Shown one piece after another: positions 160-6,288 of a stretch of DNA of 6,665 nucleotides. The position numbers were made by a program, and so were the translations under genes. Location: the IMG/VR virus record IMGVR_UViG_2737471869_000001, positions 1 to 6,665 of that record, one strand, 5' to 3'. Under the pieces are notes generated by a model. The model did not search any database. It was not told the DNA's origin and saw only the letters and a list, made by a program, of their open reading frames with translations. Position 1 is the first letter of the stretch. Each line of letters starts with the position of its first letter. Origin of the DNA: a virus. Lineage: Duplodnaviria; Heunggongvirae; Uroviricota; Caudoviricetes.

Positions 160-2040
160 TTAATACTCCGTCACGTTTTCCTGTCGCCACGCCTCGTCAT
201 ATTCCGATTTCGGCATATTGGCGATGTAGCTATATGGCGATCCTGATTCAAGTTGCAGGAACTGGTGCGATTGCTCGTCAAGGAACAACGGGACACCACC
301 TTCCCAACCTTCGCCGTTACGTTGTTTTTCAAGCATCAAAACAGATGCCGGAGATGCCAGTAGCTGTTCGTCCTTCTCTGACATCTTTTCACCACTCTGA
401 ACTCTCTGTAACGCTCTCTCGCGAGCCTTGTTACGCCAGATGATGAAAAGGTTGTCTGTCAGGTCTGTTATCGCTCCAGAGCCTTTTACGTCCATTTTCC
501 CGGTTGGTTTTTCTTCGCTGTCTCCTTTTCGCGAGTGAGTAACGAGAATGACGTGGGAGTTTGTTTTGTTTTTGAAGTCGCAAATCGAGTCAACAAACGC
601 CTTCTGCCCGTTATAGTCATCGTCGCCTATGCCACATTTCATCAGGCTGTCGATGATGAATAACTGGATCCCGTATCGGCGGCGAGCGTAGTCGAATATT
701 TCGATCAGCCTGTCGGCTTTCGCCGTTCCGGTCAGGCCAAACACCCAAAGTCTTTCGTCATAAAATTTAAATGCAGAGTCAATTTCCAGCACTGGCGGAA
801 TCTTGCAGCACGTCGCCTGACGGGTAAGGCGCTTAAGGAGAATACCAGGCTTCAGCTCAAGTGACGCGATGCACGTCTTCACACCCTGACGCATTGCCTC
901 AAGTGCCATATGCCCGACAACCTCCGTTTTTCCGTGACCGTTCACACCATTGACCAGCGTCAACTCTGCCTCACGGAACTGGAATTTATCTGCCAGAGAT
1001 TCCCACGGTGGATTAAACAGATACTGCTGCTTGCCGTAGAAAGCGTTGATAGTGTCCTGGTAAAACTCTCGCGCACTGTAGAGTTCTTCAGGATCGAAGT
1101 AGGATGCCGTGCCGATGTACTGCCAGATTTCATCCTCGGTAACACCGTTCATCAGGCATTCGTTGATGTCTTTGTACGGCAGAGTAACAAGACGGCAACG
1201 ATGTTCACCGAGTCGGCTTGCGATTTCCCTTGCGGCTTCACGACCAACATCATCAACGTCCATCGAGATGAATATTTCCTCAAACCTGTCGAGGTTGTGA
1301 TACTCAAACTCAATCCACTGTTGCTTAGCGCCTTTTCCTCCACCAAACGGCACGGATAACGCCGAGATGCCGTATTGCGCATAGCTCATACAATCAATTT
1401 CGCCTTCGCAAAGCACAACCGCCCTCACGCCAGCGTCCAGAGCCTGCCATCCGAACAGACAAGGTTCACAATCACCTTCTGCCATAATGACTTTCTTCCC
1501 GTCCGGGCGCTCAGTGCTGATTCGCTTGACCTGCAACAACTCACCATCGCGTTTGTACGGAATCACCAGAGCATCCAGTTCCCGCTCTCCATTCCACACC
1601 TTGCCGCTGACAACCTCGTAGCGCTTTACGATTTCTGGCGATATGCCACGCGATTGCAGGTACTCAAGATGGGATTCTGTTCTGGTAACGTAGCGGGCGA
1701 TTTTCTTGCGATCAGGTCTGGAGAATTTTTTCTCACGTTTGGCATCGAAATGGTGATCGTCATCCTTGATACCGAGGAATGCTTTCGCTTCCTGCATAGC
1801 CTGATGCAGGTTAATTCCACGACATGCCATCCACAAATCAAGCATGTCACCGCCGTCTCCCTCAGCGAAATCAGCCCATTTTTTCTTGCCGCTAAGATTG
1901 ACCTTAAGGCTGTTTCCCTTGTCACCGTTGACGTTACCGGCAACCCACTCATGCCCCTCTTTCTTGCCGTTTGGCAACAGGTGCGGAGCCACCCTGTCAA
2001 CCTGCGCCCAAAGCAGGTCGCTGAGTTCACTTGGCCTCAT
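160..2040 (-). CDS. Replicative primase-helicase fusion (Toprim primase domain + SF4 DnaB/T7 gp4-like helicase domain), 626 aa
   Basis: Uninterrupted 626-codon ORF; ATG at 2040 preceded by GAGGGA. Toprim signatures: acidic Glu motif in LCEGEIDCMSY and DxD in SMDVDDVG. Helicase signatures: Walker A GVNGHGKT, Walker B LFIIDSLM. The N-terminal 100 residues lack a Cys4 zinc ribbon. Sits immediately downstream of the O-like gene. Confidence 0.9.
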   Translation of the reverse strand: MRPSELSDLLWAQVDRVAPHLLPNGKKEGHEWVAGNVNGDKGNSLKVNLSGKKKWADFAEGDGGDMLDLWMACRGINLHQAMQEAKAFLGIKDDDHHFDAKREKKFSRPDRKKIARYVTRTESHLEYLQSRGISPEIVKRYEVVSGKVWNGERELDALVIPYKRDGELLQVKRISTERPDGKKVIMAEGDCEPCLFGWQALDAGVRAVVLCEGEIDCMSYAQYGISALSVPFGGGKGAKQQWIEFEYHNLDRFEEIFISMDVDDVGREAAREIASRLGEHRCRLVTLPYKDINECLMNGVTEDEIWQYIGTASYFDPEELYSAREFYQDTINAFYGKQQYLFNPPWESLADKFQFREAELTLVNGVNGHGKTEVVGHMALEAMRQGVKTCIASLELKPGILLKRLTRQATCCKIPPVLEIDSAFKFYDERLWVFGLTGTAKADRLIEIFDYARRRYGIQLFIIDSLMKCGIGDDDYNGQKAFVDSICDFKNKTNSHVILVTHSRKGDSEEKPTGKMDVKGSGAITDLTDNLFIIWRNKARERALQRVQSGEKMSEKDEQLLASPASVLMLEKQRNGEGWEGGVPLFLDEQSHQFLQLESGSPYSYIANMPKSEYDEAWRQENVTEY

Positions 2041-2147: not shown

Positions 2148-3008
2148 TCACCTGTCGAAAAACACGTAGCCAGTTTTCGATACGGTGATTGCGGATGATG
2201 GTTTGGATTGTGGTTGAATAGTTTCTGGCTTCTCGTCGTTCCAGCGTTGACCGTTCAGGTAGCTCGATGGTAACAACCTGTCGAATCCGAACTGCTTACC
2301 ATTCCTGCATGCGATGTCTTCTGCCAGCATCGTGGCAAACTCGCTTGCCGTACCCCTTGTAGTTTTACGCCATTCCCTGAACTGTGTTCTGAATGCCGAA
2401 GCCGCGTTTTTCTTCCCGTCTTTCCGCATGCCTGCACACCAGAATATTTCCTCGAATGCCTTGTCGGTTTCTTCGTGACGGTCAGATGATTTTTCACACT
2501 CCGTCCGAACACTTTCGGACATAGTGTTTTTATTATTTCTTTTTTCTTTTGTAATAGTTTCTTTTGTGTGTCCCTGTTTTGGTGACAGCGCTGTCACCGT
2601 TTTGGTGACACTTTTTGTCACCAATGCAGTGACATTATCACCAGAGTAGTGACACCCTTCGATTTGCCATTCTTCGATGTTCTTGTTAGGACCGATTTGC
2701 TGGCCTTCGCGAAGGATAACCTTCATCGCGATAAGCTCATTCTTGGCCTTGTTTACCTTCTGTCTTGGCAGCCTGGTAATTTGAGCTAACTGACTATCAT
2801 AGATGCGATCCATCTTTTTACCGTAGCCGTATGTTTTACGGCATATGGCGTGGGCAACCTTGCTCTGATTTTTCGTTAAATCTGCGCCGATAAGCTCTTC
2901 ATACAGGGCATTTGCAAGACGGGTATAACCATCTTCAACTTCTGCCACACGACGCTCCACAGGCCGTTGTGAAGGCCTTAAATGTGTTACGGTTGCAAGA
3001 TTACTCAT
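2148..3008 (-). CDS. O: Lambda O-like replication initiator (replisome organiser), 286 aa
   Basis: ATG at 3008 with AAGGAG 7 nt upstream. The N-terminal domain ([57 protein letters not shown]...GPNKNIEEW) resembles the lambda O iteron-binding domain as remembered. Origin-type iterons lie inside the gene. The C-terminal half is unlike lambda O, consistent with a different helicase partner. Confidence 0.9.
2521..2657. repeat. Origin of replication inside the O-like gene: dyad iterons plus flanking AT-rich tract
   Basis: Iteron 1 GGTGACAGCGCTGTCACC (2581-2598, perfect 18-bp palindrome). Iteron 2 GGTGACACTTTTTGTCACC (2604-2622). Degenerate copies AGTGACATTATCACC (2628-2642) and AGTGACACC (2648-2656). 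Spacing about 22-23 bp. An AT-rich tract (2521-2575) lies on the side that is downstream in O coding sense, the same arrangement as lambda ori. Confidence 0.75.
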
Positions 3009-3147
3009 GACCTTTCTCCTTCTGCATCAGCTTCACTTTTTCCAACTCAGCCCGGAATCGACCAGGCTGCTTGAAGCTGGACAGGAAGCGATCACGTAGT
3101 ATGTGTTTGTGAATTTTGTCCTGGTAAGGACTGAGTGGTTTTGTCAT
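3001..3147 (-). CDS. Hypothetical small basic protein, 48 aa ([48 protein letters not shown])
   Basis: ATG at 3147 overlaps the stop of the upstream 134-aa gene (TAATG). Strong GAGGAGG Shine-Dalgarno 4-5 nt upstream. Its stop overlaps the O start region (ATGAGTAA). Below the ORF-track length cutoff; supported only by coupling geometry. Confidence 0.35.
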
Positions 3148-3551
3148 TAAGCCTCCTCTACTTCGTAATCAGCGAAGTAACCAGTAGACATTTTTAAAAA
3201 CCTTGATTCGGTGACTGTGTAAGCCTTCCTTCCTTTCCTCTCCTTGCCTTCAGGCTCTATGAGGTGGCACGAATAAATGATTCTGCGCTGCCAGTTGCCT
3301 GGCATTTCCACCACTGCCAGAACCTCAAGAATTCTCTTTCCTTCAGCATCAGCGGTGTAAAAACACTGATCACCATAACCACAATCGGCTGGCTCATAAT
3401 TTTTGTGACAACCGCCAATCCAGCGCTCATCGGTATGCACGTTGCCGTCATAAGACTGATAATCTGTGCATACGAAGATAAATGGATATACGGTTTCGAA
3501 CTTGTCACCGGCCTTTATGCCGGTGTTTACTTGCTTGGTTTGTCCTGGCAT
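3147..3551 (-). CDS. Hypothetical protein, 134 aa, Cys/His-containing, unknown function (accessory gene between cII and O)
   Basis: The track ORF 3147..3758 overlaps cII. The internal ATG at 3551 is preceded by AGGAG 5 nt upstream and lies 35 nt after the cII stop, so the likely product starts [26 protein letters not shown]... It contains several spaced Cys/His (CTDYQ...H...[18 protein letters not shown]...SCH). No family recognised. Confidence 0.7.
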
Positions 3552-3585: not shown

Positions 3586-3864
3586 TTAAGCGTCCAGACT
3601 GCTACCAACAGCTGGGCGTTTTTCTTTTGTGAGAATCGATGCCACCTGCTGAGCAAGTCTCGCCAACTCCTCGTCTTCAACACCCCATTCCAGCACAGCC
3701 AGAAGCATGGCCATCTTTGGGATAAAGCTGTCTTTCCATCGCGAAATTTGCGATTCATTAATCCCTAACGCGTCGGCAACCTTTCGCTGACCACGTACAG
3801 CAATTCGATTCAGGATGTTGCTTGTAATTGCATTCGCTTTCTTGCGAGTACTTGTAAGTTGCAT
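3586..3864 (-). CDS. cII: CII-like lysogeny transcriptional activator, 92 aa
   Basis: Core GINESQISRWKDSFIPKMAMLLAVLEWGVEDEELARLAQQVASILTKEKRPA resembles lambda CII (SQISRWK...IPKFSMLLAVLEWGV). Start placed at ATG 3864 with AAGGAAA Shine-Dalgarno, because the longer track ORF (to 3951) would contain the nutR boxB hairpin. Confidence 0.9.
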   Translation of the reverse strand: MQLTSTRKKANAITSNILNRIAVRGQRKVADALGINESQISRWKDSFIPKMAMLLAVLEWGVEDEELARLAQQVASILTKEKRPAVGSSLDA

Positions 3865-3875
3865 ATGTAAGTATT
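3842..3875 (+). promoter_or_regulatory. PRE-like CII-dependent promoter region (antisense to the cII start)
   Basis: TTGC-N6-TTGT at 3842-3855 plus a further TTGC at 3859-3862, on the strand pointing towards cI and overlapping the cII start codon. Position and motif type resemble the lambda PRE TTGC-N6-TTGC CII site. No transcript data. Confidence 0.4.
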
Positions 3876-3922
3876 TCCTTAACAAATAAGAAGTTATGCG
3901 CATCAAATTATGCGCGTTGTAT

Positions 3923-3966
3923 TCCCGCATTTCGGCGGGAATGATGACCATGACTGTTAAAGAGCG
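3923..3966 (-). promoter_or_regulatory. nutR antitermination site (boxA + boxB)
   Basis: On the minus strand: boxA CGCTCTTTAACA (complement of 3955-3966), directly after the cro stop. Then boxB hairpin TCCCGC-CGAAAT-GCGGGA (complement of 3923-3940). The identical 18-nt hairpin recurs at nutL. Confidence 0.75.
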
Positions 3967-3973
3967 GTGTTAC

Positions 3974-4198
3974 TTATGCTGCCTGATTCGGTTTTGGAAA
4001 CAGGTGTGGCAAATCGGGGCGAATTTCGTAAGCCTTGATCTGCCCTCCAGTGGCGTTAACGATGGCGGTAACTTTCTCTGGAGAGACCAACCCGCCTTTC
4101 AGCCATTTGTGTACTGCTGGCTGCGTTACACCACACTTGTCGGCAAGGCGCTTTTGGCTACCGACAATTTTCAAGGCTCGTTGAATTACTAAATTCAT
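3974..4198 (-). CDS. cro: Cro-like small HTH repressor, 74 aa
   Basis: First gene after the divergent operator region, opposite the cI-like gene. HTH-like segment QKRLADKCGVTQPAVHKWLKG. Start chosen at ATG 4198 (AAGAGG 7 nt upstream) rather than the track start 4219, which lacks a Shine-Dalgarno. Confidence 0.8.
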   Translation of the reverse strand: MNLVIQRALKIVGSQKRLADKCGVTQPAVHKWLKGGLVSPEKVTAIVNATGGQIKAYEIRPDLPHLFPKPNQAA

Positions 4199-4231
4199 GA
4201 GCATACCTCTTGTGGTCATTAGTTATAACCA

Positions 4232-4260
4232 AAGATAACCCAAGTTATAAAAAATAGCAA
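4232..4260 (-). promoter_or_regulatory. PR-like promoter driving cro-cII-replication operon
   Basis: Minus strand -35 TTGCTA (complement of 4255-4260), 17-bp spacer, -10 TATCTT (complement of 4232-4237). Operator copies overlap both hexamers. Confidence 0.55.
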
Positions 4261-4297
4261 TAACCTTTGTTATTTTACTTTGGATAACCGTAGTTAT
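4235..4297. promoter_or_regulatory. Tripartite OR-like operator: three 14-bp dyad sites
   Basis: ATAACCCAAGTTAT (4235-4248), ATAACCTTTGTTAT (4260-4273), ATAACCGTAGTTAT (4284-4297). Centres are 24-25 bp apart, between the divergent cro and cI genes. Confidence 0.75.
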
Positions 4298-4309: not shown

Positions 4310-5017
4310 ATGAAAACATTCGCAGAAAGACTAAATGCAGCCATGAGCTCAGCAGGGGTATCACAATCACAGCTTGCTGACATGGTTGGAATATCTCAGC
4401 CAGCCATACAGAAGATGTCGTCCGGTAAAACAAACGGATCTCGCAAGATGGTTGAATTAGCCAATGCTTTAAAAGTGCGCCCTGAATGGCTTAGTTCTGG
4501 TATTGGTGAAATGAGGGATGGTGCACATGAAGAACCATCCAATGTCCGTGAGTCATCTTTAAAAGCTGTGGTATGGGAAGACATTAAAAGAAACGATGAC
4601 GAGTTTGTTGCGTTGCCTCTTCTTAACGTTTCGCTTTCAGCTGGAAGCGGTAGCTGCGAGCTAGAGGAATCATCGGAGTTCTCTTTGGTTTTCAGAAAGC
4701 ACTATCTGAAAAAGATGGGAGTATCTGAAAGATCAGCCAAGCTAGTTAGGGTTGTAGGGCAAAGCATGGAACCAACGCTTCACGATGGCGATGTTGTTGG
4801 TGTTAACACGCAAGATACCACAATCAGAGATGGTAAAACCTACGCTATTTGCCAGTCTGATTTGTTACGAGTAAAAACATTAATCGCCACCCCTACATCG
4901 GTGATAATCAGATCAATAAATCGCGAAGAGTACCCGGATGAAGTAATGGATAGAGATGAATTTCATGAAACCGTAAGGATTATTGGCAGAGTATTCTGGT
5001 CGTCTCATAGTTGGTAA
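4310..5017 (+). CDS. cI: CI-like prophage repressor (HTH_XRE N-domain + S24 LexA-type autopeptidase C-domain), 235 aa
   Basis: HTH in QSQLADMVGISQPAIQKMSSGKT. Ala-Gly cleavage candidate in LSAGSGS. Ser nucleophile in GQSMEP and Lys in LLRVKT, 37 residues apart as in LexA. The track ORF starts at a TTG (4280); ATG 4310 is preferred given the PRM geometry. Confidence 0.9.
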   Translation: MKTFAERLNAAMSSAGVSQSQLADMVGISQPAIQKMSSGKTNGSRKMVELANALKVRPEWLSSGIGEMRDGAHEEPSNVRESSLKAVVWEDIKRNDDEFVALPLLNVSLSAGSGSCELEESSEFSLVFRKHYLKKMGVSERSAKLVRVVGQSMEPTLHDGDVVGVNTQDTTIRDGKTYAICQSDLLRVKTLIATPTSVIIRSINREEYPDEVMDRDEFHETVRIIGRVFWSSHSW

Positions 5018-5057
5018 CCGATAATCAGAAGAAGACTTACGGAAGTGCGGAGGGATA

Positions 5058-5354
5058 ATGGAATTTCTGATAGTTTTTGTTGTTGTTTTGGTCATCATTC
5101 TTTTTGTTTTGCTAAGCATTAGCAAAAAGCTATCTCAAATGATTGAACATAGCTCTAATCGCGCAAAAGAAGAAGAGCATCTAATTGATATAAAAGAGAT
5201 TCTCTCTGATATAAAAATCACATTAGATGAAATAAAATATACAACAGATCTAATTGAACAGTATAAAATACCAACCCCAAACGAGAGAAAAGCAATAGAT
5301 CAATATCGTATTGACTTAGAAATCGACGAAATGCTAAGCAATAGAAAGGACTAA
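5058..5354 (+). CDS. Small single-pass membrane protein, 98 aa, AT-rich moron in the rexAB-equivalent slot
   Basis: ATG 5058 with GGAGG 4 nt upstream, 40 nt after the cI stop with no intervening terminator. N-terminal hydrophobic helix EFLIVFVVVLVIILFVLLSI followed by a charged Ile/Glu/Lys/Asp-rich, probably helical tail. Markedly lower G+C than the flanking genes (by eye). Followed by an intrinsic terminator. Confidence 0.8.
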   Translation: MEFLIVFVVVLVIILFVLLSISKKLSQMIEHSSNRAKEEEHLIDIKEILSDIKITLDEIKYTTDLIEQYKIPTPNERKAIDQYRIDLEIDEMLSNRKD

Positions 5355-5359
5355 AAACA

Positions 5360-5385
5360 CCCGGCCTCAGCGCCGGGTTTTCTTT
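5360..5385 (+). terminator. Intrinsic terminator ending the PRM (cI + membrane protein) transcript, tIMM-like position
   Basis: Stem CCCGGC (5360-5365) / GCCGGG (5372-5377), 6-nt loop, then TTTTCTTT (5378-5385). Confidence 0.75.
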
Positions 5386-5551
5386 CCCTGCCGTTCACCA
5401 CCCAATCAACCATCCTCATCATAGACAAGTATCAAGCCAAAGGTAACACCTTCACCCCGCACGCAAGCCCTCAAACACCAATCAATCAGCAACATTTACA
5501 AAAATAAAATACCTTTGTTATCCATCACTTATAACTTATTTACCACAAAAT

Positions 5552-5593
5552 ATAAATAAAGTTATTGACCGCACCTATAACCTAAGTTATCTT
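5552..5593 (+). promoter_or_regulatory. OL/PL-like operator-promoter
   Basis: Operator copies ATAAATAAAGTTAT (5552-5565) and ATAACCTAAGTTAT (5577-5590), same family as the OR sites, 25 bp apart. -35 TTGACC (5565-5570), 17-bp spacer, -10 TATCTT (5588-5593). Confidence 0.6.
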
Positions 5594-5787: not shown

Positions 5788-6060
5788 ATGACAGTAGTCA
5801 TTACATATCTGGCTGACGATAACACCAGAAATCGCCGCAGAGCACGCAGACAGGCTCAACGTGAACAGGCAATGCAAGAGCAGCGACTGGCACGAAAAAT
5901 TGCGCTAAAGCTCTCTGGTTGCGTCAGAGCAGATAAAGCAGCATCACTCGGAAGCCTTTGCTGCAAGGAAGAAGATGAACGCAGTGGAAGTATTTGCCTG
6001 CCAAACGTAGCCATTTACGCGGCAGGATACCGGAAATCAAAACAACTGACAGCGAGGTAA
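5788..6060 (+). CDS. N: N-like transcription antiterminator with arginine-rich motif, 90 aa
   Basis: GGAGG 5 nt upstream of ATG 5788. Arginine-rich motif NTRNRRRARRQAQREQ near the N-terminus. First gene after PL/nutL. The C-terminus AIYAAGYRKSKQLTAR resembles the P22 gene 24 product as I remember it. Confidence 0.85.
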   Translation: MTVVITYLADDNTRNRRRARRQAQREQAMQEQRLARKIALKLSGCVRADKAASLGSLCCKEEDERSGSICLPNVAIYAAGYRKSKQLTAR

Positions 6061-6063
6061 GTG

Positions 6064-6288
6064 ATGAATCAGACATACATTCCATCATGCTTGAGAAATC
6101 TGCCAAAGCAGAAAGCAAAGCCCCGCAAGCAAGCCATAAAGGACGCTAAGGCAGAGGTTATTGATCAAGCAATACAATTGCTCAGGGAGGAGTTAAGAAG
6201 TGGCAAGCTCGAAGGAATGATGATGCCCTATCAGCGCGGATATCTATCGGCGATTAGTAAGCTGGAAGTATTGAAGAGTGAATTATGA
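6064..6288 (+). CDS. Hypothetical small basic protein, 74 aa, first gene after N
   Basis: ATG 6064 three nt after the N stop, GAGG 6 nt upstream. Lys/Arg-rich N-terminus and a predicted helical remainder. No family recognised. Confidence 0.6.
   Translation: MNQTYIPSCLRNLPKQKAKPRKQAIKDAKAEVIDQAIQLLREELRSGKLEGMMMPYQRGYLSAISKLEVLKSEL

Follow-up and report, generated by a model that had tools for sequence, protein, structure and literature searches.

ORF98, a predicted single-pass inner-membrane protein encoded behind cI in a lambdoid immunity region, is candidate anti-phage cargo of the repressor operon

Between the cI repressor gene and the OL/PL operator-promoter region of a lambdoid phage lies a single conserved 98-codon gene, ORF98, which is oriented with cI and is predicted to encode a small inner-membrane protein with a cytoplasmic helical hairpin. 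We analysed this gene within a 6,665-nucleotide stretch of caudoviricete DNA, hereafter the window. We hold with high confidence that ORF98 has the anatomy described below, namely its identity as a gene, its cassette, its synteny and its protein architecture. Our leading explanation, to which we give a probability of roughly 0.4, is that ORF98 is exclusion or anti-phage cargo expressed in the lysogen and acting at the inner membrane. Its position, together with analogy to RexAB, BstA, Hex and HK97 gp15, makes an exclusion or defence function plausible. The chances of an anti-phage role of any kind appear evenly balanced, and a block of DNA injection, which we rank first among single mechanisms, is put forward tentatively.

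The window comprises a lambdoid immunity and replication region in the orientation opposite to that of the standard lambda map (Table 1). The motif ATAAC-N4-GTTAT occurs five times in it, compared with 0.17 occurrences expected, and a count of five was reached in 0 of 200 shuffles; the five sites mark OR, with three operators, and OL, with two. PRM must be placed within the OR region (4235-4297). The cI reading frame called mechanically begins with a TTG at 4280 that overlaps an operator, so the true start of cI is taken to be the ATG at 4310, which is also the RefSeq start in the prophage L001. The order cI, ORF98, OL/PL, N matches the lambda layout and places ORF98 in the position of rexAB, as the preliminary description of this DNA had proposed.

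Several neighbouring features were recorded alongside. The O-like initiator is paired with a 626-aa Toprim plus DnaB-like/AAA_25 primase-helicase and not with a helicase loader of the lambda P type. A 134-aa gene on the minus strand (3147-3551) sits between cII and a DUF2740-like ORF plus O and matches phrog_30464 (E=1e-94), a PHROG with no assigned function; the mechanical ORF of 203 aa overlaps cII, and the true start is probably M70. This segment is unmatched in L001, a prophage otherwise 99% identical, and thus resembles a second variable cargo slot. Directly after N, a 75-aa ORF on the plus strand (6061-6288) belongs to phrog_5305, whose function is unannotated, and is kept in many E. coli prophages. 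An Rfam scan of the whole window returned no RNA family.

Table 1. Coordinates of ORF98, its signals, its protein segments and the surrounding genes in the window.
Feature	Coordinates	Strand	Basis or remark
Toprim/DnaB-like primase-helicase	160-2040	-	
O-like replication protein	2148-3008	-	
CII homologue	3586-3951	-	
Cro-like protein (cro)	3974-4219	-	
OR region, three operators ATAAC-N4-GTTAT	4235-4248, 4260-4273, 4284-4297	.	between cro (-) and cI (+)
cI repressor, 235 aa, HTH_3 + Peptidase_S24	4310-5017	+	PF00717 E=1.6e-17, PF01381 E=8.5e-7
Exchangeable cassette, intergenic leader + ORF98	5020-5358	+	blastn breakpoints 5019 and 5359
Shine-Dalgarno sequence GGAGGG, 3 nt 5' of the ORF98 ATG	5049-5054	+	sequence
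ORF98, 98 aa, ATG start, phrog_18389 member	5058-5354	+	predicted single-pass inner-membrane protein
Predicted TM helix, residues 3-21, FLIVFVVVLVIILFVLLSI, then K23 K24	5064-5120	+	Kyte-Doolittle 3.67
Variable juxtamembrane linker, residues 22-41	5121-5180	+	family alignments; pLDDT dips to 61
Predicted cytoplasmic heptad-repeat helix, residues 42-68	5181-5261	+	register kept across family; AlphaFold2 continuous helix
Turn Y69-K-[IL]-P72 and second helix 74-97, ERKxIDQxRIDxEIDxML	5262-5348	+	invariant columns; AlphaFold2 helix
Intrinsic terminator, stem 5359-5378 then TTTCTTT	5359-5385	+	consensus scan
OL operators	5552-5565, 5577-5590	+	ATAAC-N4-GTTAT matches
PL-like promoter TTGACC-17-TATCTT, overlapping OL, drives N	5565-5593	+	consensus scan
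N antiterminator, far border of the slot	5788-6060	+	PF25694 E=2.2e-14; phrog_271

ORF98 had been described as a 98-aa reading frame with a strong Shine-Dalgarno sequence, 40 nt behind cI with no terminator in the gap and with a clean intrinsic terminator after it, and each of these features was recovered. Its start codon follows the cI stop (5015-5017) after 40 nt, a consensus scan found no terminator-like site in between, and the downstream stem consists of seven pairs, six of them G-C, closed by a loop of 6. Computed G+C content is 30.3% for ORF98 (GC3 27.3%), bearing out the low value of about 30% given earlier; cI has 43.2%, N has 49.5% and the window as a whole 46.1%. At this base composition the chance probability of 98 open codons is about 1.6e-4 per frame, and the observed open run was reached in 11 of 2,000 shuffles. 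With a dN/dS of 0.12-0.22 against the Citrobacter and other homologues, ORF98 is under purifying selection; all 31 E. coli alleles examined are intact and carry conservative replacements. On the strength of the dN/dS values, the intact alleles and the shuffles, we rejected the possibility that the frame is open by chance or is a by-product of the antisense ORF overlapping it at 4913-5125.

No second ORF of at least 30 aa was found between ORF98 and OL. The spacer from the terminator to OL (5386-5550) is C-rich, with a GC skew of about -0.58, is 95% conserved in the related prophage NZ_CP148498 (L020), and gave no ORF of at least 30 aa and no Rfam match. At the Citrobacter and L007 loci the corresponding spacer has a convergent gene of 68-74 aa (DUF2767 in L007).

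The only promoter-like site near ORF98 (4983-5011), which agrees with the consensus at 9 of 12 positions, falls within cI, and sites of this quality are no commoner than in shuffles (3 against 4.0 expected). We found no promoter belonging to ORF98 itself, and gaps of 0-24 nt at homologous loci are too short to accommodate one, so that ORF98 expression should depend on the cI promoters. The 40-nt gap, the lack of a terminator-like site within it and the terminator behind ORF98 form an operon-like arrangement that agrees with the cI-ORF98 unit claimed earlier, and we infer that the two genes are co-transcribed. Judged from the sequence, the placement 3' of cI is compatible with a PRM-cI mRNA arrangement like that of the hex gene of phage 434.

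Comparison with related prophages delimits the cargo precisely. NZ_CP148498 carries the same cI; blastn breakpoints show 99% identity to the window up to position 5019 and a restart of homology precisely where the terminator stem begins (5359). Between these points ORF98 is replaced by genes for 120-aa and 42-aa products, and the terminator is common to the two cassettes. Because the same cI is found with other cargo ahead of a common terminator, 5020-5358 constitutes a discrete exchangeable cassette. The alternative pair (L020 2121-2889) has an AT-rich leader of 245 nt and no Pfam match. In NZ_CP077436 (L019 2109-2477) a 122-aa protein with three hydrophobic segments, likewise lacking a Pfam match, is encoded 17 nt after a different cI. 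A further prophage, L018, has a related cI and no co-directional cargo gene after it. The region between cI and N has been cited as a mosaic hotspot that holds rexAB and bstA (PMC8585504).

ORF98 had also been proposed to be a horizontally acquired moron. Two traits of a moron in the Juhala/Hendrix sense are present: the base composition differs from that of the flanks, and the gene is present or absent between adjacent genes of related phages (L020, L018) as a swappable cassette. A terminator follows the gene but is common to the alternative cassette, and we found no promoter of its own, so ORF98 is better described as operon cargo than as a classical self-contained moron. All homologues are AT-rich (30-41% G+C), so low G+C is a family trait and was rejected as a sign of recent arrival.

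The preliminary description recognised no family for the protein. ORF98 is in fact catalogued as phrog_18389 (E=5e-62, with its residues 1-98 aligned to all 98 positions of the profile), a family that has no functional annotation and that was matched by 19 of 19 aligned relatives, which hit no other PHROG; the earlier statement holds to the extent that our profile searches matched no characterised family. Near-identical copies annotated as 'hypothetical protein' are present in 99 of 5,426 complete E. coli genomes (about 2%), and ORF98 is also carried by the sequenced phage Stx1a_10051. An exhaustive HMMER search of 1.8 billion representatives yielded 13 relatives at 30-66% identity, and a profile of the C-terminal domain raised the number to about 38 clusters, all of 73-126 aa and all unnamed, from E. 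coli, Citrobacter, Yersinia, Enterobacter, Serratia, Mangrovibacter and one Pelagicoccus assembly. That odd assembly apart, the family is limited to prophages of Enterobacterales. Searching 50,697 phage records by tblastn with three family members retrieved only LC744178, and a scan of one genome per species gave no relative, probably because the genomes chosen to represent the species lack this prophage.

Some family members stand apart. The most distant relatives (L006, from Pelagicoccus sp., and L017; 113-116 aa) adjoin no S24 repressor or recognisable lambdoid genes; one of them comes from a Verrucomicrobiota assembly, which is odd for a family restricted to Enterobacterales and may reflect contamination. 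A 75-aa E. coli member (P0010) has an unrelated 13-residue N-terminus in place of the TM helix and an intact hairpin, and represents a naturally soluble version of the protein or else a scar left by recombination.

This distribution bears on a reading of ORF98 as a lysogenic-conversion factor that binds and tunes a transporter, sensor kinase or protease of the host inner membrane, for a gain in fitness or virulence that has nothing to do with phages. Small membrane-protein regulators of bacteria, among them MgrB, AcrZ and MgtS, typically have this architecture. Restriction to Enterobacterales prophages would fit a conserved host target, and the carriers include STEC strains and an Stx1a phage. 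Homology to any such regulator was not found, however, and anti-phage genes are the best-known cargo of this slot (PMC8585504); we consider a conversion role quite improbable.

Homologues were found beside repressors in other prophages. In 11 independent lambdoid lineages (the window plus L002/L004, L007, L008, L009, L010, L012, L013, L015/16 and L055) a homologue lies 0-54 nt after a repressor with HTH and S24 domains and before N. Purine-rich motifs resembling Shine-Dalgarno sequences are present in these gaps as well, and a hairpin with a T-run follows the gene at 10 of 12 homologous loci. All 30 E. coli copies in IMG/VR share the 40-nt gap of the window and are preceded by a single cI allele (identity of at least 98.8%). 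Across lineages the encoded proteins are 37-76% identical to ORF98 while the repressors share only about 20% identity (17-28%) with the window cI, in the HTH and S24 parts alike, and the Cro types of lineages carrying a homologue also differ. In its evolution the gene therefore does not track a single immunity specificity, and co-evolution with one specific repressor was rejected. In Serratia (L055 3500/3501) and in L013 (3999/4001), the repressor stop abuts the start of the homologue or is separated from it by 1 nt; these gaps of 0-1 nt suggest translational coupling with cI.

Such tight coupling to cI, held across 11 lineages, could also be read as a sign that ORF98 is a membrane-tethered modulator of the prophage's own lysis-lysogeny switch, stabilising or establishing lysogeny by interfering, for example, with the RecA-stimulated cleavage of the repressor (the effect of 434 Hex) or with membrane-bound FtsH, which degrades CII/CIII. 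Hex, likewise on the PRM-cI mRNA, lowers spontaneous induction (PMC3564112). Tethering to the membrane would also bring a cytoplasmic domain within reach of FtsH. But the partner of such a modulator cannot be cI-specific, given a highly conserved hairpin next to such divergent repressors; the same cI, moreover, does its work beside different cargo or without any (L020, L018), and Hex is described as a soluble protein of 158 aa in a paper that mentions no membrane (PMC3564112). A role in the prophage's own switch is accordingly rather unlikely.

All family members are built from four parts: a short acidic or neutral N-terminus, an aliphatic TM helix, a linker that varies in length and sequence, and a conserved C-terminal block. 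The N-terminal membrane helix and charged helical tail reported in the preliminary description were both reproduced, the former by hydropathy and the latter by AlphaFold2. Outside the membrane segment ORF98 is charged and acidic, with 13 Lys and Arg residues and 18 Asp and Glu residues. The AlphaFold2 model, computed from a 19-sequence alignment, has a mean pLDDT of 78.5 and consists of a helix from residue 2 to 68, a YKIPT turn and a helix from 74 to 97. The conserved block reads I[KR]Y[TV]TDxIExYK[LI]Pxx-ER-xIDQxRIDxEIDxML; its I[KR]Y[TV]TDxIE portion belongs to the heptad helix, and Y69, P72, D81 and E88 are invariant across the alignment.

No Lys or Arg precedes the TM helix in any of the 19 members, and the 15 residues that follow it carry one to four. 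By the positive-inside rule this distribution puts the conserved block in the cytoplasm, and an N-out/C-in topology is inferred. The opposite arrangement, in which a cleavable signal peptide or an N-in anchor would expose the hairpin in the periplasm to incoming tails in the manner of lactococcal Sie2009 or P1 Sim, is very improbable. Several known Sie proteins work outside the cytoplasm, and S20-I21-S22 could satisfy the (-3,-1) small-residue rule for cleavage. Nevertheless, the traits of a cleavable signal are missing: the n-region is devoid of positive charge in 19 of 19 members, the hydrophobic core of 19-20 residues is too long for a signal peptide, and Lys and Arg cluster right after the helix, where they would retain the C-terminus in the cytoplasm.

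In the heptad helix, L42, L49, L56 and T63 occupy the a positions and I45, I52, I59 and I66 the d positions. A profile search against PDB sequences returned only designed coiled coils. This pattern makes it likely that the coiled-coil hairpin oligomerises.

An oligomerising cytoplasmic domain would also suit a single-gene abortive-infection (Abi) protein, a non-homologous equivalent of RexAB in which the hairpin senses a phage product or replication cue, and the coiled coil then draws the TM helices together, so that the membrane is perturbed, the proton motive force is lost and the infection is aborted. In designs of the GCN4-pLI type, Leu at a with Ile at d favours higher-order parallel bundles, and this register is conserved in the family. 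A sensor would be expected in the cytoplasm, the side on which the conserved domain is predicted to lie. The slot is that of rexAB and bstA, which are both Abi systems (PMC8585504), and a precedent for a membrane-anchored prophage Abi protein comes from S. aureus (PMC10127798). Set against these points, the TM helix is purely aliphatic and, with no polar face, a poor pore former; no partner gene, toxin-like feature or homology to RexA or RexB was found; and a constitutive protein of 98 aa would need to combine sensor, switch and effector in one. We regard an Abi mechanism as unlikely.

Inner-membrane exclusion cargo, our preferred reading, may operate as follows. In the lysogen, ORF98 would be transcribed together with cI from PRM/PRE, with transcription ending at the terminator behind it. 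The product would be a bitopic inner-membrane protein with a two-residue N-terminus in the periplasm and one very hydrophobic TM helix, and its cytoplasmic tail would comprise the variable linker and a coiled-coil helix-turn-helix hairpin through which it oligomerises. The membrane-anchored oligomer might then hinder a superinfecting phage in building or using its conduit for DNA entry, a mode of action proposed for HK97 gp15, so that the lysogen, and hence the prophage, would be protected at the inner membrane against other phages. That the hairpin is so strongly conserved beside unrelated repressors suggests a conserved host or phage factor, rather than the repressor, as its partner.

ORF98 is an uncharacterised example of a well-known kind of prophage repressor-operon cargo and as such is not surprising. 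The slot between cI and N earlier yielded RexAB, BstA and Hex, and the phrog_18389 family is another occupant. What the family offers is compactness: some 38 clusters that pair with unrelated repressors, are under purifying selection and share a sharply conserved cytoplasmic motif, which implies a specific conserved partner. Should ORF98 exclude phages, it would bear on the host range of phage therapy and on the spread of Stx phages. Should it instead prove a one-protein infection switch equivalent to RexAB, or a membrane-tethered regulator of induction independent of immunity type, which is a distinctly unlikely outcome, it would found a mechanistic class of its own among repressor-operon cargo. 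Testing should be inexpensive, since ORF98 is small, consists of one gene and has an isogenic control in nature (same cI, different cargo).

Searches against known systems gave no sequence or fold support for an exclusion or defence role in PADLOC, Pfam, NCBIfam, PDB or BFVD. Pfam, NCBIfam and PADLOC scans of ORF98 and 19 relatives produced only sub-threshold noise from TM or coiled-coil segments (DUF5385, MscL, ZorB); among the defence HMMs of PADLOC-DB v2 the only match, to ZorB/MotB, covered the TM region and scored 13.5 bits (E=0.0089). PDB and BFVD searches gave nothing meaningful and matched no solved fold, and a literature search on the RefSeq protein accession and on small membrane proteins adjacent to cI found no characterisation. 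Genes co-transcribed with repressors commonly exclude other phages (PMC3564112).

Lambda RexA and RexB resemble ORF98 in occupying a slot ordered cI, cargo, OL/PL, N, in their presumed co-transcription with cI, and, for RexB, in an inner-membrane location. RexB has four TM segments. Lambda Rex is encoded by two genes (279 aa and 144 aa), whereas ORF98 is a single gene with one hydrophobic segment, and hhalign gave probabilities of 0.5% for RexA and 0.9% for RexB. BstA is an Abi protein of roughly 300 aa, cytoplasmic and DNA-associated, with a cognate aba element. Its gene is found immediately behind a variety of prophage repressors, with synteny preserved, and lysogens express it at a high level (PMC8585504); ORF98 shares this position behind diverse repressors but has no PADLOC or Pfam match. 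The 434 Hex protein, encoded 3' of the repressor on the PRM-cI mRNA, confers heterologous exclusion and protects the repressor from RecA-stimulated cleavage (PMC3564112). Its gene apparently overlaps cI and the protein was purified as a soluble fragment, and it is likened to ORF98 by description only.

The closest architectural analogue of ORF98 is HK97 gp15, a YebO-like moron product and inner-membrane superinfection exclusion protein that blocks genome injection in a tail-dependent way (PMC3594210). Homology between the two is not indicated: hhalign with HK97 gp15 reached a probability of 17% over only 10 TM columns, and a Pfam search found no YebO at E<=0.1. HK97 gp15 also differs in its location in the tail operon, in having its own promoter and in lacking the conserved Y-K-L-P hairpin. 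Like ORF98, however, gp15 is small (62 aa), starts with Met-Glu and combines an N-terminal TM segment with basic residues next to the membrane and a charged helical tail. It is expressed from the prophage, as presumed for ORF98, and in each case the gene is followed by an intrinsic terminator and is AT-rich compared with its neighbours (PMC3594210).
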